Below are positions 35,503-61,656 of a stretch of DNA of 64,000 bases, piece after piece. Under the pieces are notes generated by a model, which was given only the letters and a program-made list of their open reading frames with translations, searched no databases and had not been told where the DNA came from. Made by a program: the position numbers and the translations under genes. How positions within the stretch are numbered: the stretch's first letter is position 1; every line of letters begins with the position of its first letter. This DNA comes from an uncultured Verrucomicrobiae bacterium (lineage in GTDB: Bacteria > Verrucomicrobiota > Verrucomicrobiia > Limisphaerales > Palsa-1400): positions 160,001-224,000 of the forward strand of contig CAVPOM010000012.1 in assembly GCA_963707025.1 (NCBI GenBank). Reading direction: 5' to 3'.

Positions 35503-36543
35503 GACTTTACGCCGGGCGGTTGGACAAAGGCTGTCCAACCAAAAAAATCTTTTCTTTTCCTTCTTGGGCCGGTTTTTTGCATTAACGCACAAGTCTTGGA
35601 TTATATGGGAATAGCCCGGAATTGCCCGGAATAGCAGATATATCAAGCACTTACAAATGAAACCCAGCGCACTTTGAAGGGCTTAATTTGTGGCTTTCTC
35701 GAAAGGTGGGCGATAATCGTTGGAATTCAAATGTCCAGAGGGAAAGGCCACGCTTTGAGCGGGTTATGACTTTGGACATTTGAACTCCAAAACTTATGGG
35801 TGAAGGTCTTGGGGGTGGAACCCACAACCCATCTTTAACGATAAAGCCAGACCCCGGCAGAACTTGCCCATTGCGTTTTTGAGGGTGTTTCGCCTGGCGC
35901 AACCCGCCTTTGACCTGCCCGCAAACCAGCCCGATCCGGCCGCCAGGCCGCCGGCGCTGGAAACCGGCCAGGAATGCCTCATGCAAAGCCCCTGCAAGCC
36001 TCTTGCCGGCGCGGTCCTGGACGCCCGAAAGCCCCGCCTGGCCCGATCCCGGCCGCCGCCCCTGGCCGATGTCAGGAACGGCCATCCCCGCGCTGTCAAA
36101 ACCATTTCGCTATACTTTGCAGCCGCGCCCAAAGAACGCCCGCCCCGGCCCCGCCTGGACGCTGCAAGCGCCCTTCCCGTCGCCGGCCAGGTCCGGCCCG
36201 ATCCGCCCGGCGCGACACCTGGACGCCCTTGCCAGCGCCGCCCGATCCGGCCGCCGCCGCCGCGGCCTGGACGCCACGAAGTCACAATTCAAAATGTCGA
36301 AAAACCCCCATGTCAGCATAGCGGAGGGGGTCCAAAAAACGCGCCACAATCAATCCTGGCGACAAATCCACTGTCAAGAATGGCGCAAAGCAGGAAACGG
36401 CCACAAAGAGCAAACCAACGGAACGCGCAATAGATCCGCCGGCCGGACGCCGCCGCCGGCCAGGACCACGCCCGCGCCAGGCCGCAAAAAAAGCGAGCGG
36501 AGAAAAGGTCCGCTCGCTCGCTCGCTCCCCGCCGCTGCCCGCC

Positions 36544-36888
36544 TCAATTCTTTTCAGAGCAACACACCCCGAAATACAGACAGGCCCTCCGTATCTCTTG
36601 GCGCTGCCGCCCGATCTCCCGCCTCCGCGCTCTCGACAGCTTTTCCGCCTCACGAATTCCAATGCCGCACTCCCTCTGGAATTCCTCTTCATGCTCGCGG
36701 TAAAATTGCCTCACCGCCGCCGAAAGAAAGCCCCGGAATTCAAACCCCATGCAATCCGCCAGCGCGCGCAGTCTCTTGGCTTCCCAGTCCCCAATGTTGA
36801 CGCGAAGCCAGTTCAACCTTTGCCGGCCCTGGCCCTTCGCCGGCTTCGTTGCCAGGCTGGCCGCCGTCAAAGCAAACCGCGCATTCAC
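36544..36888 (-). CDS. Hypothetical, possible ribbon-helix-helix protein
   Basis: LRVNIGDWEAKRLRALADCMG..FLSAAV pattern; GTGA overlap with upstream gene. Confidence 0.55.
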   Translation of the reverse strand: MNARFALTAASLATKPAKGQGRQRLNWLRVNIGDWEAKRLRALADCMGFEFRGFLSAAVRQFYREHEEEFQRECGIGIREAEKLSRARRREIGRQRQEIRRACLYFGVCCSEKN

Positions 36889-37340
36889 CGCGCACCGCCT
36901 TTCCCCGTGGCCATGTCGGCCGCCCGCTCAATCGCCGGCAGAAAGTAATGCAGCGCCCGATCCATGAACTGTTCACGGCTCAAGCCTTCCCTCTGCCGCG
37001 CCGAATCCATCGCCGCAAGCAGCCAGTTTGGGAATGAAACCCAAATCGTCCTGAGTTGTGGCGCTTCCCGCAGCCCCATCATGCAATCCAGTTTTTCTTG
37101 GGCGGCCACCATGACAAATTCTTCCCGGCTCATCCCTTCCGCCGCCGCCGCCGCGTCAATCAGCGGGACAATGGCCCCAGGGAAGAAAATGCGGACCGTC
37201 CTGAGCTTTTCCTTTTTGCCTGGACCCAGCCACGCCACCGGCGCGCGCGCGGCCCCCGGCCCGGACGCCGGCGCATTTTGCGATTGTGAACGGCGCGCCG
37301 CCCGCTTATCCTTTGTCTGACCTGAATTTTTCGTTTTCAT
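36885..37340 (-). CDS. Tandem RHH/CopG-like regulator
   Basis: Two copies of LRT...FP......D.A...EG.SRE.F. Confidence 0.7.
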   Translation of the reverse strand: MKTKNSGQTKDKRAARRSQSQNAPASGPGAARAPVAWLGPGKKEKLRTVRIFFPGAIVPLIDAAAAAEGMSREEFVMVAAQEKLDCMMGLREAPQLRTIWVSFPNWLLAAMDSARQREGLSREQFMDRALHYFLPAIERAADMATGKGGAR

Positions 37341-37433
37341 AATTTTGGAATGAGATTTTCTGGTTTTGCCCCGGCGGTGGTGACTCACCGCCAGGGGCGT
37401 TTTGTTTGTTGACGCTCCGCCGCCTCGTTGAGA

Positions 37434-37685
37434 TCAACGGGTGAGAAGGGCCAGAAATTTCTCGGCGATTTCAAACTCCGTCACCGGCATTTGCTCACCG
37501 TCCGCCAGCTTCAAGAATTCCCGACGGCTCAAACCTTCCTTTTTGCAAACTGAATCCATCCCCGCAACAATCGCCTTCGCCACATCGAACAATCCCGTCT
37601 TGCCCTTCGGCTCGCTCACCGGCGTTTGTGCTTGCGCCTTGCCCGGCGCGGGTTTATTTTGCCCCTGACTTGACTTGTTTTTCAT
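37434..37685 (-). CDS. Small RHH-like protein
   Basis: MDSVCKKEGLSRREF matches the repeat in the next gene. Confidence 0.6.
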   Translation of the reverse strand: MKNKSSQGQNKPAPGKAQAQTPVSEPKGKTGLFDVAKAIVAGMDSVCKKEGLSRREFLKLADGEQMPVTEFEIAEKFLALLTR

Positions 37686-38592
37686 GGTGTTCTTTCGGTA
37701 ATCGGGTCTTGCCCTTGGCGATGCTTGCCGCGCCGCCAGGGGTGTTTTGTTGCGCTTCTTCCGCCGCGACCCATTCCAGCAAACGAAGGGCGTAATCCCC
37801 CCCCGGTTCTTTGACGCCGCGAACCCATTCGGATACTCGCGCAGGCGAGACTTTCAGGAACGCCGCCAGAGCAGCTTGGTTGCCTCTCTGCGCCGCCGTA
37901 GCCTGAGCCACGCGGGCCAATAAAACCTTCAAAGGAGATTTCACGCCCGGAACAATACCCTTTCGAGAACTATCCGTCAACTCCTTTTTTGCATCCGTCT
38001 CCCGGACCACGGCAAAGCGTTCAATGACAACCCCTGATTCCTCAAGCTCGCGCTCACGAAGCGGAATGACGCAGCGAAGCAATTCGTCAATAAGTAAGGG
38101 CATATTCAGGCGAATTTCCGCGACCTGTTTTTGCATTGCCCAGTCCCCAATGATCTTTTCCGCCAAGGGGTTGGCTTTCCGGTCAGCCAAAACGCGAGCC
38201 AGGTTTTTGAGGCGAGAATGGAGGGCAGACACGAGTTGTATCAATTCATACGTCCCGCTATTGACGTTCTTTTCAATCACGTCTCTAAGCACATAGCTGA
38301 AAGCCAACCGAGTGGGAAGTTCCCCGAAATATTTGGAAAAATCACATTCGACAGGGAATTCCGGTGCGCCCTCTGCCCTCGCCAGCCAAAAAGCATTCAG
38401 ACGGAACTTTTTGGAAATCACCTCAAAAACGCTCCACGGCAAGCGCGCCCGGCCGCCTTCATAACTGGCGAGACGCTCACTGCTCAGGCCAATTTCCAAC
38501 GCGAAGGCCGTCCGGGGAATTTTCCGCGATTCTCGGAAAAAGCGTAGCCTTTGGCCGATCTTAATCTCTTGCTCCGGCAGCTTGTAGATCAC
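37654..38592 (-). CDS. XRE-family repressor with N- and C-terminal HTH domains
   Basis: IGQRLRFFRE..FALEIGLS..LASYEGG and NQAALAAFLKVSPARVSEWVRG.KEP. Confidence 0.8.
   Translation of the reverse strand: MIYKLPEQEIKIGQRLRFFRESRKIPRTAFALEIGLSSERLASYEGGRARLPWSVFEVISKKFRLNAFWLARAEGAPEFPVECDFSKYFGELPTRLAFSYVLRDVIEKNVNSGTYELIQLVSALHSRLKNLARVLADRKANPLAEKIIGDWAMQKQVAEIRLNMPLLIDELLRCVIPLRERELEESGVVIERFAVVRETDAKKELTDSSRKGIVPGVKSPLKVLLARVAQATAAQRGNQAALAAFLKVSPARVSEWVRGVKEPGGDYALRLLEWVAAEEAQQNTPGGAASIAKGKTRLPKEHHEKQVKSGAK
37952..37980 (-). promoter_or_regulatory. Internal sigma70-like promoter inside the repressor gene
   Basis: TTGACG-17nt-TATTGT, 7 nt before an in-frame GTG at 37944. Confidence 0.6.
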
Positions 38593-38678: not shown

Positions 38679-38894
38679 ATGGCGATTAACAGCCACAAAC
38701 GGGGAAAGAAGTTAGGCGCAAAAGTCCGGTTCCCAGGGATCGGGGCCGATGCCGCCGCGCTCAAACTCAGCGCATCTTACTTATGGCTTTGCCTCACCGG
38801 GCGCCGGGACCGCAAGGACATCGTGGATGCCTACCATGACCTGAAACTCAAGCAAGCCCGGCAACTCCTGGAACAAACCCAAAAAGCAGCATGA
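38679..38894 (+). CDS. Cro/Ner-like small HTH protein
   Basis: IGADAAALKLSASYLWLCLTGRR; divergent from the repressor. Confidence 0.7.
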   Translation: MAINSHKRGKKLGAKVRFPGIGADAAALKLSASYLWLCLTGRRDRKDIVDAYHDLKLKQARQLLEQTQKAA

Positions 38895-39187
38895 ATGCCA
38901 TGAATCCACAGAGACAAACCGCGACCCAAACCCGCATCGAGCAACTTCGCGCAAACCAACCCCGGACCGCCGGCGAAACCATCCATGCCCAGCGCGCGGC
39001 CAGCGGGAACTATGACCGACTTCCTGGCGGCGCGACTGAGTGCAAGCCGACTCTTCCCCCGTCCTCACCCGTCACGCAACCGGGCACGCCCTGCAACCAG
39101 CAGCGAGCCTGGGGCATTCCCCCGGCCCCTGCCAACGTCGCCGACGCCGCACCCGGCCCGGCCATCCGCTCAAAAGGCGGCAAGTAA
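38891..39187 (+). CDS. Hypothetical Pro-rich protein
   Basis: ATGA overlap with the cro-like gene. Confidence 0.45.
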   Translation: MNAMNPQRQTATQTRIEQLRANQPRTAGETIHAQRAASGNYDRLPGGATECKPTLPPSSPVTQPGTPCNQQRAWGIPPAPANVADAAPGPAIRSKGGK

Positions 39188-39224: not shown

Positions 39225-39695
39225 ATGAATACCCTCACCGAAGAATCAACCGTCGCAAACTCCGCAATGGCGAAGTCCCTGGCCGAAACCATGGCCGCCC
39301 AAACTGGCGGGTCGTTTGAAGCCTGCTGGAATTCCGTCCGTGCTGCCCGTCCCGACCTGTTTGGCCTGGAATCCCGCGAAGTCCTGGAAGAGGCGCGAAA
39401 TCGCCAGGCGAACGAACGGCGGGAGAGCCTGGTCATTCGGAACCGCTCTTCCGGCCTACTCGCCGCCAGCATCGGGCGCCAGGACACCCGCACTCTCACC
39501 CAGCGTTTCCACGGCGAGCTAGGATACAATGAGCCGCAAGGCCCGCAAATCGTCAATAGGCTTACTGCTGAAAACAGCGGCGAGGTGGTGGACATGGTGC
39601 AGGATTATCGGCGCCAGCATAACATCGCCACTTTTGCCGACGCATGGGATCGGGCGAAATATGCGCACCCAGAGTGGTTCTTTACAACGGCTTAA
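39225..39695 (+). CDS. Hypothetical with duplicated F..(A/C)W......P..F motif, possibly scaffold-like
   Basis: SFEACWNSVRAARPDLF and TFADAWDRAKYAHPEWF. Confidence 0.6.
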   Translation: MNTLTEESTVANSAMAKSLAETMAAQTGGSFEACWNSVRAARPDLFGLESREVLEEARNRQANERRESLVIRNRSSGLLAASIGRQDTRTLTQRFHGELGYNEPQGPQIVNRLTAENSGEVVDMVQDYRRQHNIATFADAWDRAKYAHPEWFFTTA

Positions 39696-39865
39696 ATCCC
39701 GCTCCCCTCACCGCTGACTACGATGTTTGAGACCCTCACAACCCCGCCGCTGCGCAACGATTGGCCTGCCGGGACTCTTCGACCCCGGCTGGTTTGTAAT
39801 GGCCCGGCGCTCGCCTGCCTGTCGCTCGCGAGCGCCGGAGGGCCATGTTGCCCCGCAATCGGCCC

Positions 39866-41680
39866 ATGAGCGCCAATCTGACGAATAACTTTCCCCACCG
39901 GACGTTGTTTCCCCGGCGGGGTGTTTGCGGCCGATATGCCCGCCGCCCTGTCACCCGTTGTGCCAGGGCGGCGGCGGCACATGTCGGCCTCCTTCTCTTC
40001 ACGGTTTTCTTTTGTTGCGTCGCGCCGGCCCGCGCTCAATTTGCCATCCCCGTCCGCATCGGCGCGGATGTGGTCAACCCTGGCGGCAACGTCGCCCGCG
40101 CTCTGATAACCGGAAATTCCTGGGAATTCGACGTGGCCATCCTGGCCAACGGCCAGGTGTCAAACATCTGGCCCTACACCTCGACAATCACTCTCTCCAT
40201 TTGCACCGGGCAGAATGCCACGGCCACGCCCCTTCTATCTGCCACTCTCACCAACGGCAATCCGCTTTGCACAAATTTTGCCGATGCAACTGTGTCGTCT
40301 ATAAATACGAATCTTTCTCAATCGGCCTGGTCGAACAATGGCGGCATCGGCCCGCTCGGTTATCCCACCAATTTGCACGCCCGCTTCGTCTTTCCCTCCG
40401 CGCAGACTGCCATCAGCTTGAGCGGCGGAATCAGCCGGCAATGTGTTTTGTTCATCACTCTGACTTCAACCAATGCGACCGCCCCTCAAATTCTCACCGC
40501 CTTTATCGGCACTGTCAGCCTGAGTGCCGGCTCGACGCTTGGGGGAGCCTCCGTCCCCATCCCCTACGCCGTAATCGTCAACGGCGCTGGCACTTTGCAA
40601 AGCCCGGCCAACTTCTTCACCGCCTCGCTGCCCTGGTATCCTTCGACCATCTTCATCTCGACTGCGGGCAGCGACACCAACGCCGGCACGAACCTGCTTT
40701 CGCCTTTCCTCACCCTGACCAACGCCCTCACAACCGCCTCCAACCTCGGCGGCAACGTGACGATCCAGCTGGGCGCCGGCTCTTTCCCTGTGCCGCCCAA
40801 CGCCGCCTATATCAACACCAACATCGCGCTCATCGGAGAGGGCGCGGGCGCGACCTTTATTGTGACGCCGACTACCGCGAATGGAGCGGGTCTCGTCGTG
40901 GCCGGGGATAATGTCTATTTGCGGGGATTCAGTTTTGGCACCAACACTCACTCAGGCACCGCCTACTTCCCGCTCGTGCCGCTGCGCGGCACCAATTTCT
41001 ATGCGCAGGACCTCATCGGGAGCGGGGATTCTGATGTGGTATATGTAACCGGATCGTTTAACTGGACCTCCGCTTTCACCGGCTCTTTTGTGAATTGTGT
41101 CTTTTATTCCGGGTATGATTGTGTGAATTGTGAAGCGGGCTACGAAACCTCTTCGGGCGCCAGCACCAACAGCATTCTTTCGTTCGCCGGATGCAGCTTC
41201 AACGTCGTTGCCGACCCAGGTTTTGGCGCTCGTATGTCGCGGGGCATTTACCACACGACCGGCAATCTCTTCGTGGCGGATTGCTCTTTTAATATCACCA
41301 ATAATGCCAATGTCTATACGACGGGCATTGAGGCTTCAACCGACAACAGCAGTGTTGCAAATATCGCCACCGCGACCGTGCGCAACTGCGCGTTTAACGT
41401 CACCAACACGGCCCACCCGGCCGAGGTTTCGGGCATTGTGTTGAACAGCGCGGCCGGCGCGCCCGCTGTCCTCAACGTGATCGGCCCCATCAATCCGGGC
41501 AGCATCAATAATTCCACCGGCACAGTCAACTACGATTCGGCGCAGTTTGCCTCCCTGGCTTTTGTGGGCGCTGGCGTCACCGCGCCCGTCGCCATCGCCG
41601 GAGTGGGCCAGCTTTGGGTTTCAAATAACTGCCTGATGTATGTAACCACGGCCCACACGAACCTTATCACCCTTCCATGA
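39866..41680 (+). CDS. Tail fibre/tailspike-like or secreted beta-helix protein
   Basis: T/N/G/S-rich; IFISTAGSDTNAG..PFLTL..A cap then pectin-lyase-like NC.F repeats; signal-like segment APARA/Q. Confidence 0.65.
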   Translation: MSANLTNNFPHRTLFPRRGVCGRYARRPVTRCARAAAAHVGLLLFTVFFCCVAPARAQFAIPVRIGADVVNPGGNVARALITGNSWEFDVAILANGQVSNIWPYTSTITLSICTGQNATATPLLSATLTNGNPLCTNFADATVSSINTNLSQSAWSNNGGIGPLGYPTNLHARFVFPSAQTAISLSGGISRQCVLFITLTSTNATAPQILTAFIGTVSLSAGSTLGGASVPIPYAVIVNGAGTLQSPANFFTASLPWYPSTIFISTAGSDTNAGTNLLSPFLTLTNALTTASNLGGNVTIQLGAGSFPVPPNAAYINTNIALIGEGAGATFIVTPTTANGAGLVVAGDNVYLRGFSFGTNTHSGTAYFPLVPLRGTNFYAQDLIGSGDSDVVYVTGSFNWTSAFTGSFVNCVFYSGYDCVNCEAGYETSSGASTNSILSFAGCSFNVVADPGFGARMSRGIYHTTGNLFVADCSFNITNNANVYTTGIEASTDNSSVANIATATVRNCAFNVTNTAHPAEVSGIVLNSAAGAPAVLNVIGPINPGSINNSTGTVNYDSAQFASLAFVGAGVTAPVAIAGVGQLWVSNNCLMYVTTAHTNLITLP

Positions 41681-42285
41681 GCGCCGCGCCCTCCATTTCA
41701 AAAACCCTTTCCAGCCCGGCCCGCCTGGCCGCTGGAATTGACGGCTCTGGCCTGACGAAAAAAACCAACGGGCGCGCCGTGGCGGACGTGCCCCGTTCCA
41801 TCCCGGCCTGCGCTGTCAGCATCGCAACGGCCCCGGTTCAAGCGCCTTCCACCGTGTTCATAAACATCCGGCGGCCTCTTATGTCCGTTTGGGGCGTGGC
41901 ACTCCTGCTGAATCAAAGCGAGGAATTTGTGGAGACGGCCGTTGAAGACGGGCGGTTGGCCTGGGCTTTCAACATTAGCGGCCCCGGCTCGCACACCCGC
42001 TGCGTCCGCGTGTTCACCCGCTGCGTTCTGGATTGTTGCGCCAGCGTCAAGAACTCCTACACCGCCCCTTTTGTCCTGAATGCGATTTTCCCGGAAGCGC
42101 GTGCAAAATTCCACACCCATGAAATCGCCTATGCTTGGCATTGTGGCGTGGATCAAATTCGCCTCCTGGCCGAAAAGGGCGTTCTGAAGAAGTTGCCCGG
42201 CGGACCTCGCAGAGGACCAAACTCGGTGGTCTATTTTTCCAGAGCCGTCCTGGCCGATTTCCTCACCAGCCGACGCATCACATGA
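41677..42285 (+). CDS. Excisionase/MerR-like double winged-HTH protein
   Basis: VWGVALLLNQSEEFV...EDGRLAWAFNI and THEIAYAWHC..QIRLL.EKG.L. Confidence 0.6.
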   Translation: MSAAPSISKTLSSPARLAAGIDGSGLTKKTNGRAVADVPRSIPACAVSIATAPVQAPSTVFINIRRPLMSVWGVALLLNQSEEFVETAVEDGRLAWAFNISGPGSHTRCVRVFTRCVLDCCASVKNSYTAPFVLNAIFPEARAKFHTHEIAYAWHCGVDQIRLLAEKGVLKKLPGGPRRGPNSVVYFSRAVLADFLTSRRIT

Positions 42286-42615: not shown

Positions 42616-43320
42616 ATGAACAAGAAGCTTCCACATAAAACCGCAGCTCAGAAACCCTCCCCTCCGCCCGATCCCGCCGCCGCCATTCCGCCAGATGTTC
42701 AAGCTCTTCTCGAAAAAGCCCCCCGCCAGAGCCAAAAAACCTTTCGCCTTTGGCTTGCCGCCATCACTGCCCTGGACGCCGCCCCAAACTTACAGAAACG
42801 TGCCACAGCCCGCGTTTGGGCGCGCCGGCTTTCCGTCCGCCCTTCCACCGTCTATAACAAGCGATTCCAGTTTCGGAAAGACGGCCCCATTGCCCTGCTC
42901 GACAAACGCTTTTCAGGCGACCTCTGGAAAGGAAACCGCAGCGGCCTGCCCGGCCTGGCCATCGCCCATTTGAAGCAACTTTCCGACGCCGGGCAACTTC
43001 CCGCAAAGGATGCCATCCGCGCCCTCTTCGCCCAATTGGAACGCTGGCGTGCCGGCGACGCCTCCGCAAGAATTCCTGGCTACGGCCTGCCGCCGGCGGG
43101 CAATCCGCCGAAAGGTTGGACTTCGCGCAACCTGGCCCGGTTTCTTGCGCCCCGCGCCCGCCGCCCCGCGCCCGGCCACGCCGTGTTCAAAGTCGAACTC
43201 GCTCTTCGAAAACAGGGGGACGCCTTGGTCCTGTTCGCCCGCCAGACGTTGCCAAAATCCTCCGCCAAAGCCGCCCCTCTGGCCCGATCCGGCGGCAAAC
43301 TCAAGGTGGTTTTATGCTGA
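42616..43320 (+). CDS. HTH protein resembling an isolated transposase DNA-binding region
   Basis: WARRLSVRPSTVYNK..FRKDGPIALLDKR; IPGY..PKGWTSRNL; no catalytic domain. Confidence 0.6.
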   Translation: MNKKLPHKTAAQKPSPPPDPAAAIPPDVQALLEKAPRQSQKTFRLWLAAITALDAAPNLQKRATARVWARRLSVRPSTVYNKRFQFRKDGPIALLDKRFSGDLWKGNRSGLPGLAIAHLKQLSDAGQLPAKDAIRALFAQLERWRAGDASARIPGYGLPPAGNPPKGWTSRNLARFLAPRARRPAPGHAVFKVELALRKQGDALVLFARQTLPKSSAKAAPLARSGGKLKVVLC

Positions 43321-46267: not shown

Positions 46268-47838
46268 GCGTATCCATTATCCGCCCCGAAACCGTCGCCG
46301 CCAAACTGGCCGCCGCCGCCAATCTCTCACAGCCCCTCTTGGCGGAGGAATTCGCCGAACAGCCGCGCCTTGTAGAATTGCTCTGGTTTCTGCAATGGGA
46401 ATCCATGCAACCCGGCGGCCTGGAAAAATTCACCCTGGCCCTTCTTGCGGAATTCCCCGGCCGCATCGGCCCGGCCGCGCTCCTGAGCGCCGGCGCTGGC
46501 AAGCTCACGCAAAAGGAATGCCTCGAAATCTGGCGTCAAATCCCGCCCGGTTATTGGCGCGACATCCTGCCTGACAATGCCTGGCACATGGAAAGTCTGC
46601 GCTCTAGTGAGGATTACGCTGAAAAGGCTTGGGTTGGCGAACGGGTCTTGCCGCAAGAAGAATCGCGCCTGGCCGCCGCGCTGGCGAAATTGAACCGTCA
46701 AGCCTTCGTGGAAGCGGCCACGGCCGCCGCCGAAACAAGCCTGGCCGCTTATCTCACGTCCCTCTGCAATGAGGTCAACAGGCCGCAAAGACACGCTGAC
46801 GGCGAAATGGGCGAGCCTTTAACGAATCCGCCTTGGTATTTTGCCGACATCCTGCCGACGCTCTTTGCCGCGATGGATTCTCACGCGCAGCGCGCCCGCC
46901 AAGGCATCGCTATGACTGAGGTTGCGTTGAAGGTGTTCGACGCCCTGGAATACGCCTGGTCAGAAAAGGCCCTGGTGAATGTCCAGGGCGATTCTCGCTT
47001 TGGAAAAACCGAAGCCGTCAAGACCTGGTGTGCGATGCACCCCGGCAAGGCCCGGCTTGTCACCGTCCCTTGCTCCAACGGCGCGGCGGAGTTATATCGC
47101 GCCTTTGCGGACGCGCTTGGCATCGAGCACTCCTACAAAACGGCCCCGCTCAAGCTCAAGGAACTTGTCGAATTCACCGTCAAGCACAGCGGTTTGATGT
47201 TCGTTGCGGACGAAGCTCACTTTTTGTTTCCGGCCGCCTCTTACAAAAACAGCCCGCCGATGCGATTGAACTGGCTCCGCACTCAAGTCGTGGACCGCAG
47301 CCTGGCCGTGGCGCTGGTGAGCACGCCGCAAGACTATAACCATGCCGCCGCCAAGTTTGTCAAAGCCAGCGGATTCAACCTGGCACAGTGGACCGGCCGC
47401 AAAGCACTGCAAGTCAACCTTCCCGCCGAACTGGACTTTGACGACTTGCTCGCGATTGCGAAATTGAAAGCCCCGGACCTGGACGGCGATTTTCAGGAAT
47501 TGATCGCGGCCAAAGCCCTGCAATCCGAAAACTACATCATGGCCGTTGACGCCATCGCCAAACGCGCCCGCTACGTCGCCAAGCGCGACGGCCACGCGGA
47601 AACCACGCTTGCCGATGTCACCCTGGCCATCGCGGAGGTTATCCCCGCCAGCGCCAGCGCCCCGGCCCCGGCCGGCGCTTTCGCCAGGCCCGCGCCGGCT
47701 GTTGCCCCTATCCGCCAGCCGCGCCGCGCCGCCGCCGCCAATCATCCCCGATCCATCCGCCCCGCCGCGCCCGATCCCGTGCCGGCGCTGCCAATTTCGC
47801 CGCAACGTCAAGCCATCCCGGCCTTAGTTGCCGCGTAA
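46264..47838 (+). CDS. AAA+ transposition ATPase (MuB/TnsC-like)
   Basis: Walker A GDSRFGKT, Walker B FVADEAH; ATGA-coupled to the transposase. Confidence 0.85.
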   Translation: MSVSIIRPETVAAKLAAAANLSQPLLAEEFAEQPRLVELLWFLQWESMQPGGLEKFTLALLAEFPGRIGPAALLSAGAGKLTQKECLEIWRQIPPGYWRDILPDNAWHMESLRSSEDYAEKAWVGERVLPQEESRLAAALAKLNRQAFVEAATAAAETSLAAYLTSLCNEVNRPQRHADGEMGEPLTNPPWYFADILPTLFAAMDSHAQRARQGIAMTEVALKVFDALEYAWSEKALVNVQGDSRFGKTEAVKTWCAMHPGKARLVTVPCSNGAAELYRAFADALGIEHSYKTAPLKLKELVEFTVKHSGLMFVADEAHFLFPAASYKNSPPMRLNWLRTQVVDRSLAVALVSTPQDYNHAAAKFVKASGFNLAQWTGRKALQVNLPAELDFDDLLAIAKLKAPDLDGDFQELIAAKALQSENYIMAVDAIAKRARYVAKRDGHAETTLADVTLAIAEVIPASASAPAPAGAFARPAPAVAPIRQPRRAAAANHPRSIRPAAPDPVPALPISPQRQAIPALVAA

Positions 47839-50154: not shown

Positions 50155-50176
50155 AGCTTTTTTTTTGAACCGCTGT

Positions 50177-50828: not shown

Positions 50829-50906
50829 TTGTTGAAGGCCATATCCTCTGTAAGTAAAAATGGGCAAATGCTGGGACATGTTTCCGAGATGTTTCCGAAC
50901 AGCTTT

Positions 50907-53900: not shown

Positions 53901-56900
53901 GCTGGCCCCGGCCAAGGTCAGGCCGCTAACGGTCACGGCAATGCTGTTGCCCACTCCGGCGCTGGCGAAATTGGCAGCGTAGCCGTTGGTATTGAGGGCC
54001 AGCGTGTCGCCGCTGACAATGCCGGAGAGAACCACAGAGTTGGAACTCAGCGTCGCGCTGGTGGTGCGGTCATATACCTTGTTGTTGGCTGTGATACCGG
54101 AACTGATGGTCACGGCCGCCGCCGTGATGCTGGCCGTCAGGCCCGCCGGTTGGGTCAGGGTGTAATCGGCGTTGCTGGCCCCGGCCAACGTCAGGCCGCT
54201 GACGGTCACGGCAATGCCGTTGCCCACTTCCGCGCTGGCGAAGGTGGCGGTGTAGGCGTTGGTGTTCAGGCTCAGCGTGTCGCCGCTGACGATGCCTAAG
54301 AGAACCACGCTGTTGGAACTGAGCGTGGCGGTCGTCGTCCGGTCATATACCTTGCTGTTGGCTGTGATACCGGAACTGATGGTCACGGCCGCCGCCGTGA
54401 TGTTGGCCGTCAGGCCCGCCGGTTGGGTCAGGGTGTAGTTGGTGGCCCTGGCCCCGGCCAGCGTCAGGCCGCTGACGGTCACGGCAATGCTGTTGCCCAC
54501 TCCGGCGATGGCGAAGTTGGCGACGTAACCGTTGGTGTTCAGGCTCACGGTATCGCCGTTGAAAACGGTTGAGAGCGCCACATTATTGGAATTGAGCGTC
54601 GCCATCGTCGTCCGGTCGTACACCTTGTTATTGACGGTGATGCCTGACGCGATGGTCAGCGGCGAGGGATTGATCGTCAGCGCGCCGTTGACAAAGGGTC
54701 CGAACGTGTAGTTGGCCGCTGCGAGCGTGCCCGATGACGGCGTCACGCTGTAGGTGCCCACCCCGCTTGTCACCGTTGCTGCCGTGCTGAAATCGGGTGC
54801 TCCGCTGACCACGCTAATCGTTTCACCGTTCACGAACCCGCTGTAGGCCGCGCTGAAATCGGGATTCGCCGCGCCGTAATCGCGCGAGGCGGGGTTGGCT
54901 GTGACGGTCAAACCGGCGCGGTTCACCGTCAGCGCGCCGTTGGTGTAAGTGATCGCATAATTGCCCGGCGTGAACGTCCCGCCCGTCGCCGCGCTTGGCA
55001 CAATGCTGTAGGGCGAGCCGCTTACTGGCGCGTTGGAAATGGCGCCATCGCTCGTCAGCGTGACCGTGCCCATTGTCTCGGAGTTCTGCAACGGGGTGGA
55101 AACAAATTCCGTCCCTGCGAAGGTGACGTTTGAGCCGTAAGTTTTGCTAAAGCTGTTTGCGGTGATGCCCAGAGGTGCCGGATTTACGGTGAGTTGGCCG
55201 TTGGCGTAGGTAATGATGTAGTTGGTCAATCCTGCGTCGCCGAGCGCATTGTTGATGGTGATCGCGTAGGGCGAACCGCTGACGGGCGCATTGGAGATGG
55301 CGCCAGTGCTGGCGAGCGAGGCGCTCGTCACGGTATCGCCGTTGACCAGGCCGCTGGTCGCGAACTCGGTACCGGCGAAGCTGAGAGTCTGGCCGTAAGT
55401 CTTGGTCTGGTTGGTCGCGGTGACACTCAACGGCGCTTGCAACACCGTAATCGGCACCTGGAACGAAGCCGGCGCGTCGCTGGGATCGGAGGGCGTAAAC
55501 GTCGCCGTCAGCAATTGGCCAGCCCCCGAATTGAGCACCGTCCCCGCCACGGGATTGTAAGCGAAGGTTCCGGCCACGCTGGGCGTCGTTGAGGGATTCA
55601 ACTGACTCGCACCCAGCGGGGTGCCGTAGGTGATGTTCGCCGGCGTGGCCCAAGTAATCTGCCCAATATTGGTGAGAACCAGGGCAGTGGGTGTGTAGTT
55701 GGTCTTCCAAATGGCACCCGAAGGCGAGGAAAAATTGGTGAATGCGCCAGAAGCTGAAGCGAAAGTCAGAACCGAAAATGAATCGCCTACTGCCGGGAGA
55801 TAACTATTGTTCAAGTGGACGCTGATTGAGCCGTCCAGCGTGGAAGGGTTATCTGAAAGATAAATCTGCCCAAAGCTGGTCAGGTTGCTGATGCCAAAAT
55901 TCAGTGTGCCACCGGTCAAAGCAAAGTCAGCATTCAGACTGATTGTTCCTGCTTCCGCATCCAAAATGCCGCTGTTATTCAGATAAACGTTGAAGCTGGT
56001 GGTGCCGCTTCCGGCGCTCTTGCTCACCGTGCCCGCGTTCTGGAACTGCGCCGAAGTACCTGAGTCGTTATATATCTGCTGGTCACATTGAATGGTCCAC
56101 AGCGCGCCCGCCTCGTTCCAAATCGCGCCCGCGTAATCGGGAATGCCGCTTATGTAGCGTATGTCCACGTCCCCTGCCTGCCAGTTGACCGTCCCCTCAT
56201 TGGTCAAAGCGCCATACAAAGTGAGAGTCCCTTCAATGTTCAACACCCCGTTGCTCGCCACCGTCAGTGACGCGCCAGGGCTGCCATTGTAAAGGTTGCC
56301 ACCGTAAAGGTTCAAGGTGCCGCCCTGAGCGATCTGGCCGGTTACGCTGGCCCCGTAAAGGTTCACTACGCCCGTGAAATCGTTCAGCAGCACGCTGGCA
56401 CCGGTTATTCGCACCAAACCCGGCCCTTGGAATTCAGGCGTAGTGCTCAGGCTCACCGTTCCTCCAGCAAAGTAGATCGCTCCGCTGGCCCCAGCCTGGA
56501 AGCTCCCACCCAAATCACTGCCGTCATTAAAGTCAATCGTGCCGTTCTGCGCCTGCACACTGCCGCTGTTGGCGAAGAAGACATTGAAGCTGGTCGTGCC
56601 GCTTCCGGCGCTCTTGCTCACCGTGCCCGCGTTCTGGAACTGCGCCGGCTGCGCCGAATCACCAGCGTACGAGTTATATATCTGCTGGTCACATTGAATG
56701 GCCCACAGCGCGCCCGCCTCGTTCCAAATCGCGCCCGCGTAGTCGGGATTGCCGCCTATATATGCTATGTCCACGTCGCCTGCCTGCCAGTTCACCGTCC
56801 CCGCATTGGTCAAAGGGCCATACAAAGTGAGAGTCCCTTCAATGTTCAACACCCCGTTGCTCGCCACCGTCAGTGACGCGCCAGGGCTGCCATTGTAAAG

Positions 56901-58508
56901 GTTGCCACCGTAAAGGTTCAAGGTGCCGCCCTGAGCGATCTGGCCGGTTACGCTGGCCCCGTAAAGGTTCACTACGCCCGTGAAATCGTTCAGCAGCACG
57001 CTGGCACCGGTTATTCGCACCAAACCCGGCCCTTGGAATTCAGGCGTAGTGCTCAGGCTCACCGTTCCGCCAGCAAAGTAGATCGCTCCGCTGGCCCCAG
57101 CCTGGAAGCTCCCACCCAAATCACTGCCGTCATTAAAGTCAATCGTGCCGTTCTGCGCCTGCACACTGCCGCTGTTGGCGAAGAAGACATTGAAGCTGGT
57201 CGTGCCGCTTCCGGCGCTCTTGCTCACCGTGCCCGCGTTCTGGAACTGCGCCGGCTGCGCCGAATCACCAGCCAACCCGTTATATATCTGCTGGTCACAT
57301 TGAATGGCCCACAGCGCGCCCGCCTCGTTCCAAATCGCGCCCGCGTAGTCGGGATTGCCGCCTATATATGCTATGTCCACGTCGCCTGCCTGCCAGTTCA
57401 CCGTCCCCGCATTGGTCAAAGGGCCATACAAAGTAACAGTCCCTTCAACGTTCAACACCGCGTTGCTCGCCACCGTCAGTGACGCGCCAGGGCTGCCATT
57501 GTAAAGGTTGCCACCGTAAAGGTTCAAGGTGCCGCCCTGAGCGATTTGACCCGATACGCTGGCCCCGTAAAGGTTCACTACGCCCGTGAAATCGTTCAGC
57601 AGCACGCTGGCACCGGTTATTCGCACCAAACCCGGCCCTTGGAATTCAGGCGTAGTGCTCAGGCTCACCGTTCCGCCAGCAAAGTAGATCGCTCCGCTGG
57701 CCCCAGCCTGGAAGCTCCCACCCAAATCACTGCCGTCATTAAAGTCAATCGTGCCGTTCTGCGCCTGCACACTGCCGCTGTTGGCGAAGAAGACATTGAA
57801 GCTGGTCGTGCCGCTTCCGGCGCTCTTGCTCACCGTGCCCGCGTTCTGGAACTGCGCCGGCTGCGCCGAATCACCAGCCAACCCGTTATATATCTGCTGG
57901 TCACATTGAATGGCCCACAGCGCGCCCGCCTGGTTCCAAATCGCGCCCGCGTAGTTGGGATTGCCGTCTATATATGCTAAGGCCACGTCGCCTGCCTGCC
58001 AGTTCACCGTCCCTGCATTGGTCAGGGGGCTGTAGATTTGAACGCCTCCTTCAATGTTCAACACCCCGTTGCTCGCTATGGTCAAGGAAGAACCCGGATT
58101 TAATTGTCCACCTGTCCAATTGAATAGGCCTTGCACACCAAGGTTGCCGCTGCCCCCAAAACTGCCGCCGCTCACACCAAAGATGCCGTTGGTCCCGATC
58201 ATGCTGGCGTTATTGAGCGTGAGGGAAAAACTGGCGTTCGTAAGGGTTTGTTCTCCGCTGGCGGCACCAAGGGTGAGGCTGTTTATCGTTGGGCTGGTAT
58301 CCAGCGTGACAAGGTAAGTGCCGTCCGCGGCAATTACAGCATCGTCGGACGAACCCGGGACCTGGTTCGGATTCCAGTTGGCGGCCAGGCTCCAGTTTCC
58401 GCCGCTGGTGTTGGTCCAGGTGATCGTAGCTGCTTGGCAGGGAATGATTAAGAAAAAAGCGGCCAAACTACAAAAATGCAAAATGCCGGGACTACTTTTT
58501 GTTTTCAT
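50907..58508 (-). CDS. Giant secreted adhesin-like protein (beta-helix repeats, MBG-like domains, 13 YDG-type repeats)
   Basis: Signal peptide then WTNTSGGNWS..NW; 202-aa repeats; KTYG/RDYG domains; 13 KVYDRTT repeats; start MKTKSS. Confidence 0.9.
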   Translation of the reverse strand: MKTKSSPGILHFCSLAAFFLIIPCQAATITWTNTSGGNWSLAANWNPNQVPGSSDDAVIAADGTYLVTLDTSPTINSLTLGAASGEQTLTNASFSLTLNNASMIGTNGIFGVSGGSFGGSGNLGVQGLFNWTGGQLNPGSSLTIASNGVLNIEGGVQIYSPLTNAGTVNWQAGDVALAYIDGNPNYAGAIWNQAGALWAIQCDQQIYNGLAGDSAQPAQFQNAGTVSKSAGSGTTSFNVFFANSGSVQAQNGTIDFNDGSDLGGSFQAGASGAIYFAGGTVSLSTTPEFQGPGLVRITGASVLLNDFTGVVNLYGASVSGQIAQGGTLNLYGGNLYNGSPGASLTVASNAVLNVEGTVTLYGPLTNAGTVNWQAGDVDIAYIGGNPDYAGAIWNEAGALWAIQCDQQIYNGLAGDSAQPAQFQNAGTVSKSAGSGTTSFNVFFANSGSVQAQNGTIDFNDGSDLGGSFQAGASGAIYFAGGTVSLSTTPEFQGPGLVRITGASVLLNDFTGVVNLYGASVTGQIAQGGTLNLYGGNLYNGSPGASLTVASNGVLNIEGTLTLYGPLTNAGTVNWQAGDVDIAYIGGNPDYAGAIWNEAGALWAIQCDQQIYNSYAGDSAQPAQFQNAGTVSKSAGSGTTSFNVFFANSGSVQAQNGTIDFNDGSDLGGSFQAGASGAIYFAGGTVSLSTTPEFQGPGLVRITGASVLLNDFTGVVNLYGASVTGQIAQGGTLNLYGGNLYNGSPGASLTVASNGVLNIEGTLTLYGALTNEGTVNWQAGDVDIRYISGIPDYAGAIWNEAGALWTIQCDQQIYNDSGTSAQFQNAGTVSKSAGSGTTSFNVYLNNSGILDAEAGTISLNADFALTGGTLNFGISNLTSFGQIYLSDNPSTLDGSISVHLNNSYLPAVGDSFSVLTFASASGAFTNFSSPSGAIWKTNYTPTALVLTNIGQITWATPANITYGTPLGASQLNPSTTPSVAGTFAYNPVAGTVLNSGAGQLLTATFTPSDPSDAPASFQVPITVLQAPLSVTATNQTKTYGQTLSFAGTEFATSGLVNGDTVTSASLASTGAISNAPVSGSPYAITINNALGDAGLTNYIITYANGQLTVNPAPLGITANSFSKTYGSNVTFAGTEFVSTPLQNSETMGTVTLTSDGAISNAPVSGSPYSIVPSAATGGTFTPGNYAITYTNGALTVNRAGLTVTANPASRDYGAANPDFSAAYSGFVNGETISVVSGAPDFSTAATVTSGVGTYSVTPSSGTLAAANYTFGPFVNGALTINPSPLTIASGITVNNKVYDRTTMATLNSNNVALSTVFNGDTVSLNTNGYVANFAIAGVGNSIAVTVSGLTLAGARATNYTLTQPAGLTANITAAAVTISSGITANSKVYDRTTTATLSSNSVVLLGIVSGDTLSLNTNAYTATFASAEVGNGIAVTVSGLTLAGASNADYTLTQPAGLTASITAAAVTISSGITANNKVYDRTTSATLSSNSVVLSGIVSGDTLALNTNGYAANFASAGVGNSIAVTVSGLTLAGASNADYTLTQPAGLTANITAAAVTISSGITANSKVYDRTTTATLSSNSVVLLGIVSGDTLTLNTNGYAANFASAGVGNSIAVTVSGLTLTGASNADYTLTQPAGLTANITAATVTISSGITANNKVYDRTTSATLSSNSVVLSGIVSGDTLALNTNGYAANFASAGVGNSIAVTVSGLTLAGASNADYTLTQPAGLTANITAAAVTISSGITANSKVYDRTTTATLGSNSVVLLGIVSGDTLSLNTNAYTATFASAEVGNGIAVTVSGLTLAGASNADYTLTQPAGLTASITAATVTISSGITANSKVYDRTTSATLSSNSVVLSGIVSGDTLALNTNGYAANFASAGVGNSIAVTVSGLTLAGASNADYTLTQPAGLTANITAATVTISSGITANSKVYDRTTSATLSSNSVVLSGIVSGDTLALNTNGYAANFASAGVGNSIAVTVSGLTLAGASNADYTLTQPAGLAANITAATVTISSGITANSKVYDRTTAATLASNSVVLSGIVSGDTLTLNTNGYAANFASAGVGSGIAVTVTGLTLAGASNADYTLTQPATLGANITAATVTISSGITANNKVYDRTTSATLSSNSVVLSGIVSGDTLTLNTNGYAANFASAEVGNGIAVTVSGLTLTGASNADYTLTQPATLAANITAATVTISSGITANNKVYDRTTAATLSSNSVVLSGIVSGDTLALDTNGYAANFASAGVGNSIAVTVSGLTLAGASNADYTLTQPAGLTASITAATVTISSGITANNKVYDRTTTATLSSNSVLLSGIVSGDTLTLDTNGYVANFAGAGVGSGIAVTVSGLTLAGASNADYTLTQPAGLAANITAATVTISSGITANSKVYDRTTAATLASNSVVLSGIVSGDTLTLDTNGYVANFASAGVGSGIAVTVSGLTLAGASNADYTLTQPAGLAANITAPSLTIVTSLTNVIVSWPANASAFVLNKTASLTLPITWTQVTTGISIVGTNNTITNNAGAGNQYYSLIAP
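51117..54665 (-). repeat. 13 x 273-bp intragenic tandem repeats
   Basis: 273-nt period (e.g. 51121 and 51394); 91-aa units. Confidence 0.92.
55990..58085 (-). repeat. About 3.5 x 606-bp intragenic tandem repeats
   Basis: TGGAACTGCGCCGG at 56635, 57241, 57847. Confidence 0.9.
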
Positions 58509-58885
58509 ACAGAATGCCTGATGGTTTTCGTGCTGCCGCGTTCCGAGGAAAGGCGATGAACACCTCATCTCAGATCGAAAAACAGCCAAATTGGTTTATG
58601 GAATATCGTAATTTGTCCATCAAACGGACTTTAATGTCAACGAAGATTCAATGAATAATCAGAGCCAACGAGGAATCGGTTCAATTGGGCGACGGCGGGT
58701 GCCCGACTGCGAACTGCATTTTCTGCCTCTTGTTCTGGAGGTCAGGCTGGAAGAACTGTTTCCAAAAATGTCCCTTTCAGGAAGATTGGGCCGCATTTCC
58801 AATCCGGCGCAAGCCTCGCAGTTTTCCCAATCCATGCCGAAAATTGAGGGGGCCTTCCTTGGCTCCAGAATTTAGTTGTGACGAA

Positions 58886-59149
58886 GTGAGGGCGGCAGTT
58901 TCGGCAAAGCCCTGATGCGCGGCCTGCCGGCTGAGGGACTTGGCGAAAGCTTACGCGCTCATGGCGCCAGGGCAGCCTGTCTTCGGCGATTTGAGACGGT
59001 GGAACGCCGTGGAATGGAAGCGCGGGCCGGTGGAGCGGTTCACCGGGCGGCGCTGGAATGGAGCGGAGTGGAATCGGCTTGAATTGGCGAAGTCAGGCCC
59101 GTCCGCAGCCGATGTGTCGTTGGAAGCTGCTTCCGGCGACTCATCGGCG
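58886..59149. repeat. Structured ~265-bp direct repeat, copy 2
   Basis: Colinear with 50559-50828. Confidence 0.85.
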
Positions 59150-59235
59150 GGCCTGGGATCGCCCCTTTTATTGGGTGCTTCCCGGCTCATTCTAATTTGC
59201 TTTCAAGATGAGTGTAACTGTGCTATCGTTTGTGG

Positions 59236-59730
59236 ATGGCAAGACCTATTCAAATTGATGTGAAACGTGTGACCCAAGCGAGGCTCACGGTGAAAGCGAC
59301 CCGAAATCTTGATGACTTTAAGTCGGCGCTGGCGATCCTACTACCGGCTCAAGCGGGACTGACTCTCGAGGAAACCGCCCGCATGTTGGGTGTCGGAACG
59401 GCGTCGGTTAATCGATTGCAAGCCCGGCTGCACGTTGGTCGCACCACCTGGTCAGAGCGACGCAATTGCCAGCCGCATGACGTGCCGGTTCTGGTCGCCA
59501 CCCGGCTGTTGAAGCCGTTGGGTAATCCGGTGCCAAGTGCTGTCAAGTACTTTTCAAGGTTGGAAATCCTGGACCTCGCGCAGGATCGTAGCTGGCTGGT
59601 GAGGGTGACGAACGCCGTCAATCAGCACTGGCAAACAAAAAATGCCCAAAGGAAAAACCGCTCTGTGAGTGGTCCACAGAACGATCCTCCCCGCCTGGTT
59701 GGAATGCCAGCGGTTTCCACCTTCGGTTGA
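59236..59730 (+). pseudogene. Probable chimera: IS630-like HTH fragment fused to the 3' part of an element HTH gene
   Basis: GLTLEETARMLGVGTASVNRLQ, then abrupt switch to CQPHDVPVLVATRLLKPLGNP. Confidence 0.5.
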
Positions 59731-59735
59731 CGCTC

Positions 59736-60783
59736 TCAAGCGACGGCGGCTGGCATTGGCACAATCACGCCCTCGGCGGCAGCGAATTTCCTCTCATAAT
59801 CCTCCAAGGTTGGAATCACCACTTGGGCTTTTCTCGCGTAGGCGCGATGGACGGCCTTGCTTTGGTGCCCCAAAGCCTCCTGGGCGAATCTTTCCGGGTA
59901 GCCGCAGGTCTTTGGCGCGTTCCGCCCAAGCGTAGCAGTAGGAATGCAGGGTGATGCCTTTAATCATCAACCGGCGGCAGGCGCGGGCGAACTCCGTTGC
60001 CCGGTGCCCCTCCCGCATCGGCATGAGTTGGGGGAAGAGCGGACCTGATTGCGGGAGCGTCCGCAACACGGCCTCAAGCTCTCCGCCAAAGCGGATGATC
60101 GAAGCGGTTCCGGTCTTGTGGCGGTGGAAGCTGACGACCTTGCCGTGCCAGTCAATATCCTCTGCGGTCAAGCTCGCAAGGTCGGATTGAGCGCCGCCCA
60201 GGAGCCAGCAGAATTCGTAAAACGCCCGGCGTTCCGGGTTCAGTTCGCCGGTGATGATGGCTCCATGTTCTTCCCTGGTGATGGCCCGTTTGGCTTTGAA
60301 CCGCACAGCCGGCCATTGGCGTTTGGGCACCAGTGGCCAGGCGAGCCAGTTCATGTCCAGGCAGAAGTTGTGCAGGCGGCGCAGATAAACGTTGGTCGAG
60401 ACCGTGCCGCTTTGAAGGGTCTTGAGCAATAGTTCGCCCGGCGTGTCAATGATGGTGCGGGGGAGCAACGGGGCAAGCGCCCTGTCTTTTGCCACGCGCA
60501 GCCAGCGTTGGCGGTTGGCCCCTTGCTTGGACTCAATCAGCGTTTCCATTGCTTGCTGCCAGGTGCGGGTGGTCAGGGCGTTGTCGGCACCCGCCAAATA
60601 GGCTCTGGCGATTTGCAGGTTGAGGACCGGCTGGCGCTCGGCGGCATTCTGGGCCTCGATAATCTGTCTGGCCTCCGGCTCGCTGGTGGTGTGAAGGCTG
60701 GCGCGCTTGCCTGTTTTCTTGTCAACAGAATAATATGTTCCGCCGCGGATGCCACGGAAGATTAAGCGGTAACGTGCATTCAT
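59736..60783 (-). pseudogene. Tyrosine integrase with HxxR changed to HxxC and a +1 frameshift
   Basis: EDIDW, KTG, LHSYCY; after one extra A (~59912) the frame continues TCGYPERFAQEALGHQSKAVHRAY to TGA at 59736. Confidence 0.85.
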
Positions 60784-60959
60784 AACTTTTCTCACGTAAC
60801 CGCGATGGTAAAAGAACCCGAATCCGAACCGTTAGCGAGTAGCGGGAGAGTTATCCCCGGTTATCGCGAATTCTGACGGAGTACCAAATTTGGTGTCCGT
60901 TCCGGTGTCCGTTTTGGACCTTGCCGCTGCCAACTCCTTGCTGCGCAAGCAGTTGGAGA

Positions 60960-60985
60960 TGGAGGCGGGGGTCGGAATTGGACCG
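60960..60985 (-). other. tRNA 3'-end fragment (Cys-like) within the att site
   Basis: CGGTCCAATTCCGACCCCCGCCTCCA: T-arm-like stem, acceptor 3' strand, U-CCA; no 5' half. Confidence 0.7.
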
Positions 60986-61352
60986 CGCCCTGGACGCGGA
61001 CAACCTTTTGGCCGCCGGGGAATTGGACGCATCCAACGGTTTCAAAGTGCGCTACAGCCTACACCTGGCTTGTGGCGCGAATGGCATCTATGGCTTGTGT
61101 CGTGTTTCCGATTTTCACAAGGCACTGGTGGCGACGGAAAGAGAGTTGGAACGGACCGGCCTTTTGACCCATGCTGACATCGGCTGGTTGTGTCCCGCTG
61201 AGATGATCTGGCGCAGATTCCACCCCAAAACTGACGCCAGCCCCTTCACTCCAAAGATTTTGGATTCCACTGAAAAGCGCGTAGTCAATACGAAGGTGGT
61301 TCACACCCTGGCATGGTTTTGTCAGCATTTCCAACTACCGCCGCGCCCATGA
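60984..61352 (+). pseudogene. 3' half of the split gene
   Basis: ELD-RALDADNLL..LPPRP*, in frame with 49294-49443 after excision. Confidence 0.75.
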
Positions 61353-61656
61353 AACCCACCGCCGCCACACCCTTTTCCAGCGCCAGGCATGGCCCCTGCA
61401 AGCCCATTGAAGCGGCCACGCAACGCCGCTTTACCGCTCACTTTTCCAGCCCGACTCTTGCCCCCCTATGCCCAATCCGCCCTACATCGGCGGCGCTGTT
61501 CTTTAAAGGCAAGTAGGCTTGGACTCAATCGAAACCACGTAAAGCCGCGCAAATGCGGCCCTTACCGTTTCTACTTCTTTCCCGGACATCAGGACGCGCA
61601 AACTCCAAAACTTATCGCTTCTTTTACAGGTTTTGCGTTAAATTGACTCCGTTTTC

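Follow-up and report, generated by a model that had tools for sequence, protein, structure and literature searches.

In a 64,000-nucleotide stretch of DNA from an uncultured Verrucomicrobiae bacterium (the window; contig CAVPOM010000012.1, positions 160,001 to 224,000, G000:C12:160001-224000 in our numbering), positions 35576-61628 hold an element that is, in our best reading and probably, a transposase-driven phage satellite of Mu-like tailed phages of Verrucomicrobiota. A preliminary description had singled out a compact unit of ~14.4 kb here after removal of a nested insert; the compact unit stands, and its net size is corrected to 14,513 bp. The element and its relatives are discrete, transposed and selected units with partial virion gene sets. 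Gene content and termini indicate that each unit is inserted at varied sites by its own DDE-type transposase/ATPase pair, and that its subset of virion genes varies and comes from Mu-like prophages. That these units form an undescribed satellite class spread across Verrucomicrobiota, which inserts and multiplies by Mu-type transposition instead of an integrase and swaps capsid, portal, scaffold and tape-measure modules to fit different helpers, possibly including a vertically kept, Mu-derived particle gene cluster found in two genomes of the genus (G000:C3/G003:C3), is a proposal that we consider evenly balanced between true and false.

The family was delineated with a transposase profile, which matched in 19 of 61 relatives, 52 of 301 genomes of the order and 7 of 401 genomes of the phylum, a few of the matches being MuA of full prophages. 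Flanks were examined for most of the first matches, for 40 of the 65 matches in the order and for all 6 in the phylum. They revealed a common plan of leftward regulators, cI, cro, a cargo slot, the transposase and the ATPase, with host genes following within a few kb. The gene order that the preliminary description expected to recur at different loci thus does so, between TG..CA ends and 4-bp target duplications. Transposases of these compact elements measure ~800-930 aa against 630-730 aa in full prophages, and their ATPases ~500-570 aa against 350 aa. The full prophages L156-L158, G010:C183 and G037:C31, at 24-31% identity, combine the shorter MuA and MuB with strings of early or tail genes. 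The closest homologues of the window element are not full prophages: they are compact, share its plan and occupy many loci. Its origin as a one-off deletion or decay of a full prophage is rejected.

Trained on 13 ends of family members, an end matrix placed both ends at or above the cut-off of at least 10 bits in 18 of 41 loci. Seven of these 18 are flanked by a 4-bp duplication and none by a 5-bp one, compared with 4 of 306 cross-locus pairings; one of the seven, G020, belonged to the training set. A 5-bp family duplication is ruled out by these counts, and earlier 5-bp pairs were low-scoring chance pairs. The seven loci are 6.4, 11.2, 12.8, 12.9, 13.7, 13.9 and 14.7 kb long, six of them falling within 11-15 kb, and 4-bp duplications also bracket two of the six loci outside the order (11.7 and 12.8 kb). 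The 6.4-kb minimal member (L142, G149:C29) has both ends and the duplication with no recognisable cargo. Two related elements of one genome, G012:C31 and G012:C95, occupy different sites and are 97% identical over 636 bp of the left end. Independent elements lie upstream of a GntR-ABC operon in G020:C3, G012:C31 and L114, and others adjoin one small toxin-antitoxin-like gene in G007:C79 and G026:C49; such shared host neighbours hint at a target preference.

In a quick tree of the catalytic core, 7 full-prophage MuA rows and 58 other rows (those not labelled full, counted as compact though some lie on short contigs) are split by one change, and 0 of 500 shuffles scored as low. Omitted were L155 (short core) and L117 (duplicate of L116); the first tree held 9 full-prophage MuA rows and the second 7, L018 and L019, called full by short transposase only, being left out of the latter.

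The cargo slot of the relatives corresponds to the place of the scaffold and fibre genes in the window element. Among the 30 loci with at least 8 kb upstream and at least 4.5 kb downstream, tallied by hand, 23 contain virion-type genes: tape-measure-like genes in 19 (10 PHROG-named and 9 of the window's family), capsids in 10 (PHROG-named, of three unrelated types) and portals in 3. Relatives carry HK97 protease-capsid fusions in the slot (G018:C62, G007:C79 and G023:C110), and also HK97, phrog_283/267 or phrog_1005 capsids, two portal families, Mu gpI-type proteases, gpF-like pilot proteins, neck proteins and PHROG-named tape measures. E-values are circular where a profile made from compact elements is scored against the rows that went into it; PHROG calls and tests free of the window row were used instead. 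In all six unsaturated pairs, covering tape-measure-like, capsid, protease and portal genes, the ratio of nonsynonymous to synonymous substitutions (dN/dS) is 0.15-0.36 by a simple counting method on GC-rich DNA, with 0.20-0.27 for transposases; by this measure the virion cargo is under purifying selection. Profiles for terminase (large and small subunits), tail tube, holin-like protein, lipase and connector had no match in any of 63 compact loci, the terminase profile matching in 2 of 5 full-prophage loci as a control. Head genes lie upstream of the transposase in relatives, the reverse of the order in the full prophage G015:C4, and therefore a simple deletion cannot yield this arrangement. 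The interleaving of virion-like with transposition genes had been taken to argue against random decay, and the shared plan and dN/dS below 1 bear this out.

These results also bear on recurrent decay, by which each locus would be a Mu-like prophage that has lost most of its late genes. Although every virion-like gene has a prophage homologue, the window copy itself is damaged and decayed Mu-like remains exist in the same genome (C3 and C7, described below), both ends and the duplications bracket just 6-15 kb, the gene order is unlike that of full prophages, the transposases group apart and, like the ATPases, are longer, terminase, tube and lysis genes are found in 0 of 63 loci, and dN/dS is well below 1. 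We regard recurrent decay as very improbable.

The ORFs (open reading frames) named in the preliminary description are all present. The features of the window element, by position and strand, are the following.

35571-35575, no strand: left target-site duplication GGTT(T), with the same letters from 61629; the family duplication is 4 bp, so the register is one base off in a T6 run.
35576-35850, plus: left end, placed by the relatives' alignment, with TT terminal motif, IHF-consensus site at 35641-35653 and inverted repeat 35713-35740/35770-35797.
36544-37685, minus: three small leftward ORFs, 36544-36888, 36885-37388 (weakly ribbon-helix-helix/repressor-like) and 37434-37685, with homologues in G007:C79, G020:C3 and L114.
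37654-38592, minus: cI-like repressor with two helix-turn-helix domains, PF01381 (HTH_3)/PF13560 (HTH_31), phrog_8 at E 3e-11.
38679-38894, plus: small cro/ner-like protein, divergent from cI, no family match; same-position homologues in G027:C8, G033:C163 and G012:C31.
38891-39187, plus: 98-aa ORF, no family match.
39225-39695, plus: scaffold mimic, by profile homology two copies of the C-terminal helix-turn-helix of the Mu-type protease/scaffold gpI.
39845-41680, plus: tail-fibre/spike-like protein, 611 aa, with signal-peptide-like start, prophage-type N-domain (profile of prophage N-domains) and beta-helix-like C-domain.
41677-42285, plus: homologue of a small early gene of Mu-like prophages (blastp, G000:C7 71716 at E 6e-13, L158 9214 at E 9e-9).
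42616-43320, plus: free-standing copy of the MuA N-terminal part, 38% over 110 aa to MuA of the full prophage G015:C4 (E 1.5e-11).
43544-46267, plus: Mu-type transposase, 907 aa, open frame, D393/D394, E464 and E512 invariant.
46264-47838, plus: MuB/TniB-like AAA ATPase, 524 aa, PF13401 (AAA_22) at E 8e-9, phrog_296 at E 4e-8, Walker A GDSRFGKT.
47851-49149, plus: putative tape measure or ejection protein, helical, 432 aa (503-555 aa in relatives), by family profile.
49294-49443, plus: 5' part of the conserved small last gene, which the nested element interrupts; no significant match by itself.
49433-60983, no strand: nested tyrosine-integrase element (11,540 bp), bounded by direct repeats of 11 bp at 49433 and 60973; integrase at 59794-60795 (minus).
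60984-61352, plus: remaining 3' part of this gene; matches the last gene of G007:C52, G020:C3 and G030:C630 at E 1e-11 to 7e-9.
61519-61628, plus: right end, conserved ~100 bp ending TACA, from the relatives' alignment and the end matrix.
61629-61633, no strand: right target-site duplication GGTT(T), matching the left flank.

The right end at 61628 (..TACA), as first placed, holds: it has the top end-matrix score within 60.9-63 kb (16 bits), and its ~100 bp align with the right ends of 9 relatives. The left end had to be moved from 35700 to 35575/35576, 124 bp further left, where the relatives' left ends align. An IHF-consensus motif at 35641 is the sole plus-strand match in the window and lies 66 bp inside this end, compared with 62-65 bp in 4 relatives, and GGTT(T) borders the element on both sides, a duplication of 5 bp or of 4 bp with an extra T. 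The position 35700 is ruled out, since there is no target duplication there and the IHF-type motif would fall outside; the end matrix alone does not separate the two (5.2 bits at 35576, 5.4 bits at 35700). As to the matching end motifs described earlier, the right end does finish in ..CA and relatives show TG..CA, but the terminal dinucleotide of the window's left end is TT, not TG. The inverted repeat at 35713-35740/35770-35797 probably represents transposase sites. The left-end region of the full prophage G015:C4 (~316.5 kb) has an IHF-consensus motif like that in the left ends of compact elements, and this common motif is a candidate IHF site or shared packaging signal.

The element combines a MuA-type DDE transposase with a MuB-type ATPase, as Mu-like phages do. 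The 907-aa transposase itself has no Pfam or PHROG match, while relatives' transposases match phrog_310 and the family profile matches the MuA core 1bcm (E 2e-4). D393, D394, E464 and E512 do not vary across at least 58 of 59 compact rows or across the full-prophage rows, which suggests a D-E-E catalytic triad with E464 as the second catalytic acid, and dN/dS of the transposase against G005 is 0.20. Together, the 4-bp duplication and this predicted triad would mark a distinct branch of Mu-type transposases. The intact frame with its invariant acids and the ATPase with AAA_22 domain and Walker A motif agree with the preliminary description, as does the cI/cro-like switch, in which a two-domain cI (HTH_3/HTH_31) faces a divergent cro-like gene. 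The claim of one rightward operon with overlapping junctions holds for the overlaps (ATGA at cro/38891, fibre/41677 and transposase/ATPase, and TAATG ahead of 49294), but not for a single transcript, for which no promoter was found and across which the rightward gene run has gaps of 330 and 223 bp. The protein of 42616-43320 matches 1 of 68 transposases, MuA of G015:C4, and not the element's own transposase; copies of this ORF are also found in G005, G010, G020 and G027.

Pfam and PHROG give no match for any of the three virion-like ORFs; what identifies them is homology to late genes carried by Mu-like prophages from the same bacterial family. In the key tests, profiles built without the window row recovered each of the scaffold-, tailspike- and tape-measure-like ORFs. 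Such a scaffold profile finds 39225-39695 as its sole match genome-wide (E 2e-12), and with the window row included it reaches the gpI C-terminus of the full prophage G311:C8 (E 7e-4 among 2,112 proteins); the G020 homologue resembles the gpI C-terminus of G008:C23 (E 3e-6). Atlas matches for the scaffold score below 0.9 and are leads only. For the fibre, a profile of six prophage tail-gene N-domains picks out two genes genome-wide, 39845-41680 (E 1e-13) and one in the C3 prophage. The N-domain, folded from 7 sequences, gives a low-confidence immunoglobulin-like sandwich (pLDDT 54, best Z 6.6), its C-domain has Atlas leads of 0.85-0.88 to viral DUF1565/pectate-lyase clusters, and the single-sequence fold (pLDDT 40) has no Foldseek match at E<=0.001. 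The fibre gene is absent from the other 62 compact loci. A signal-peptide-like start is unusual for virion proteins; it is frequent in tail-fibre-like and head-adjacent genes of Verrucomicrobiota prophages (window 39845-40033, G015:C4:342793, G016:C172:66228 and G000:C3:277593).

The tape-measure-like family profile built without the window row matches the window protein (E 7e-11) and the last late gene of G015:C4 (E 1e-41). Homologues also occur in G016, G008, G010 and the C3 cluster, where they are the only long helical candidate, and the family shows no profile match to PHROG-named tape measures; the product of 47851-49149 may accordingly be a tape measure or an ejection protein. A frameshifted tail of this gene was considered in 48983-49294, where the profile match is not significant (E 6.4). 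In the window element, searches with Pfam, PHROG and local profiles turned up no gene for capsid, portal, terminase or lysis, as stated before; the same searches found no small terminase, of which a remote one could be missed because small terminases diverge fast.

Tn552, Tn5053 and Tn7-like transposons likewise pair a DDE transposase with an AAA ATPase between terminal repeats. The element could be a cut-or-copy transposon of the Tn552/Tn5053 kind, with virion genes that are passengers or serve the host (e.g., as a secreted glycan-binding protein) and are unrelated to particles. The weak TniB match of the ATPase, the signal-peptide-like start of the 611-aa protein and the 7 of 30 loci without recognisable virion genes fit this idea, but the slot holds almost only head and tape-measure genes, which come from several unrelated sources and are under selection, the window element shows no resolvase or TniQ match in the Pfam/PHROG scan, and it has a phage-type switch in addition to its virion cargo. 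We consider such a transposon distinctly unlikely.

As to a possible helper, the window's own genome, 6.96 Mb and 88% complete, contains a single Mu-type transposase (the one in the window), one terminase and one capsid gene, the latter two in a late cluster on C3; a blank Pfam terminase search of this genome was a false negative, the C3 gene passing the cut-off, and in a PF06074 search the control was likewise unmatched. Two genomes of the genus have this Mu-like late operon at a shared host locus (G000:C3:268.6-293.1 kb, L082/L083, and G003:C3:12.6-34.6 kb); it comprises lipase, holin-like, terminase, portal-protease, HK97 capsid and tail genes without transposase or early genes. Its capsid is 96% identical between the two (dN/dS 0.06); the cluster is intact in G003, whereas in G000 capsid and tube are frameshifted and an insertion sequence is present. 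It is a candidate gene-transfer-agent-like cluster or an old prophage, and similar head clusters lie amid host genes in G040:C22, G175:C105 and G125:C25. On C7 (70.6-72.8 kb, L099) there is an isolated Mu-like early fragment with a repressor pair, the 41677-42285 homologue and a Gam-like phrog_491 gene, without transposase. The HK97 head of C3 is unfit for a gpI-type scaffold. The window gene set, consisting of a gpI-type scaffold, a fibre N-domain and a tape-measure-like gene, points to a putative helper whose head is of the Mu gpI type, as in G008:C23 or G311:C8, rather than to the HK97-type C3 cluster of the same genome. G008:C23 holds homologues of all three virion-like gene types together with a gpI-type head.

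Several observations weigh against a satellite. A helper transposase is absent from the own genome. Elements and terminase genes occur together in 9 genomes against 7.6 expected, so that the co-occurrence with terminase-bearing prophages anticipated earlier shows no excess, and terminases were matched in 5 of 13 family carriers against 13 of 18 other genomes in an insensitive search among related genomes. Exact-pattern scans of viral contigs, which may omit near records, returned no element, contrary to the expectation of element DNA in viral sequences, and 50,697 phage records gave nothing beyond one weak match. The small terminase, the usual packaging-redirecting part of PICIs according to the available text of PMC10085698, is missing. 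No virion gene was recognisable in 7 of the 30 well-covered loci, and some cargo sets are incoherent for particle building, with portal and tape measure but no capsid in L130 and L132. The window's tape-measure call depends on position and homology to unannotated prophage genes only, the fibre has its signal-peptide-like start, and two of its three C-domain homologues look like secreted host proteins. In the tree, the branch separating compact from full-prophage transposases has SH-aLRT support of 82 and 74 in two runs, below the starred threshold.

Part of this would be expected of an anti-phage decoy transposon, our main rival explanation, in which the element moves only within genomes or passively, and its copies of scaffold, tape-measure, portal, capsid and MuA-domain genes would poison the assembly and replication of Mu-like phages in a dominant-negative way. 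Incomplete and freely swapped cargo sets, the lack of packaging genes, the free MuA N-domain of helper type, the lower terminase count in carriers and the blank viral-contig scans are all in line with it, and satellite-borne assembly blockers are known (Rta, in the part of PMC12987554 available). However, full-length protease-capsid fusions and portal-protease-capsid runs (G018:C62, G007:C79, L125 and L128) under purifying selection look constructive, some transfer route is needed to account for the patchy spread over many families, and there is a size ceiling near 11-15 kb. We rate the decoy as unlikely, if the most serious of the rivals; it is compatible with the satellite reading and does not exclude it.

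Among known systems, Mu and Mu-like prophages share with the element the MuA-type core (1bcm), the MuB-like ATPase, the cI/cro-like switch and homologous virion-like genes, and with its relatives the TG..CA ends. They differ in size (11-15 kb for the family, ~35 kb for G015:C4) and in having terminase, tube and lysis genes; the complete head, terminase, tail and lysis modules of Mu-like phages at 35-40 kb contrast with the 14.5 kb net of the window element. Mu duplicates 5 bp of its target and the family 4 bp, and the family further differs from Mu in head genes upstream of the transposase and in the longer transposase and ATPase. In the accessible parts of PMC10085698 and PMC12987554, PICIs and cf-PICIs resemble the element in length (10-14 kb), divergent regulators, capsid-morphogenesis genes or their own capsid, portal and protease genes, and in some cases tape measures. 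For capsid morphogenesis, the window element has a candidate in the gpI-type scaffold mimic, whose homology is weak. PICIs are defined there by integrase, primase-replicase and small terminase (PMC10085698), none of which was matched in the window element by Pfam or PHROG, and the only integrase in the span belongs to the nested element with its own repeats. cf-PICIs have their own capsid, portal, large terminase and connectors, none of which the window element has; relatives have capsid, portal and protease, with large terminase or connector in 0 of 63 loci. By the features compared, the element is not a member of the Mu-like phages, the PICIs or the cf-PICIs.

PLE of Vibrio cholerae encodes a size-changing scaffold. 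It also resembles the element in a partial virion gene set and its own tape measure in chimeric tails (PMC12987554, in the text available). It differs by a site-specific integrase, RepA and the lytic helper ICP1, as given in the consulted portion of PMC10085698; the string 'transpos' occurs 0 times in the text of PMC12987554 at hand, and Pfam and PHROG matches of the window element include no integrase or replication initiator. P4-like satellites offer the idea of a capsid-size scaffold (Sid) at ~10 kb (PMC10085698, same portion), but have an integrase, alpha primase and a psu-delta-sid operon, none of which was seen in Pfam/PHROG scans of the element. In that source an integrase belongs to the core of each of the four groups (P4-like, PICI, cf-PICI and PLE), and its available text contains 'transposase' 0 times; none of the families listed in the accessible part of PMC11389934 is described there as transposable. 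By gene content, the element agrees with the definition in the same text of a satellite as not a phage and unable to build a particle alone. Integrase-based PLE and some cf-PICI that encode their own tape measures are a precedent, as far as the text of PMC12987554 extends. The part of PMC13492144 available has nothing on such elements, and full-text literature searches, with most subscription papers outside their scope, gave no description of a transposase-driven satellite family.

If the element is a satellite, it might work as follows. Helper replication would flip the cI/cro-like switch, upon which the element would transpose, while the free MuA N-terminal domain could bind the ends of the helper and slow it. 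Mu itself is packaged from its left end while integrated. The helper terminase might similarly package from a pac-like site near the left end of the element, and the element's own scaffold (or capsid and portal in relatives), tape measure and fibre would be built into chimeric particles favouring element DNA. Conserved virion cargo for such a mechanism is present; no pac site or terminase subunit was identified.

The window copy itself is probably immobile, barring assembly errors, because of its TT end, split last gene, short helical gene and 26 kb with the insert. Three low-share soil sequencing runs (contigs) cover the element patchily at a depth of ~0-3, with no informative joint or loose end at 35576. 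The nested element has a tRNA-Cys-like attachment site, its right junction matching the 3' end of tRNA-Cys at C8:152713, and it encodes a 2,560-aa surface protein of the YDG/MBG repeat type (50907-58589, minus) with 13 repeats of 273 bp and 4 of 606 bp. It has many relatives in the same genome, with integrase matches on C7-C11, C16 and C17, and its 49771 ORF is found on six other contigs.

Satellite families (P4-like, PICI, cf-PICI and PLE) have been found and defined by their integrase, according to the portion of PMC10085698 available, and a transposase-driven family would therefore be invisible to those models. Transposase matches occur in about one sixth of the genomes of an abundant soil and peat order. 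To our knowledge, almost no phages have been described in this lineage. If the satellite reading is true, Mu-like phages gain a candidate natural parasite, and the lineage a testable gene-transfer route. Mini-Mu derivatives are laboratory deletions; insertion at many sites together with packaging of flanking DNA would, if true, make these elements a natural mini-Mu that moves host genes. Even if they act as decoys, they would provide a large set of candidate inhibitors of virion assembly.

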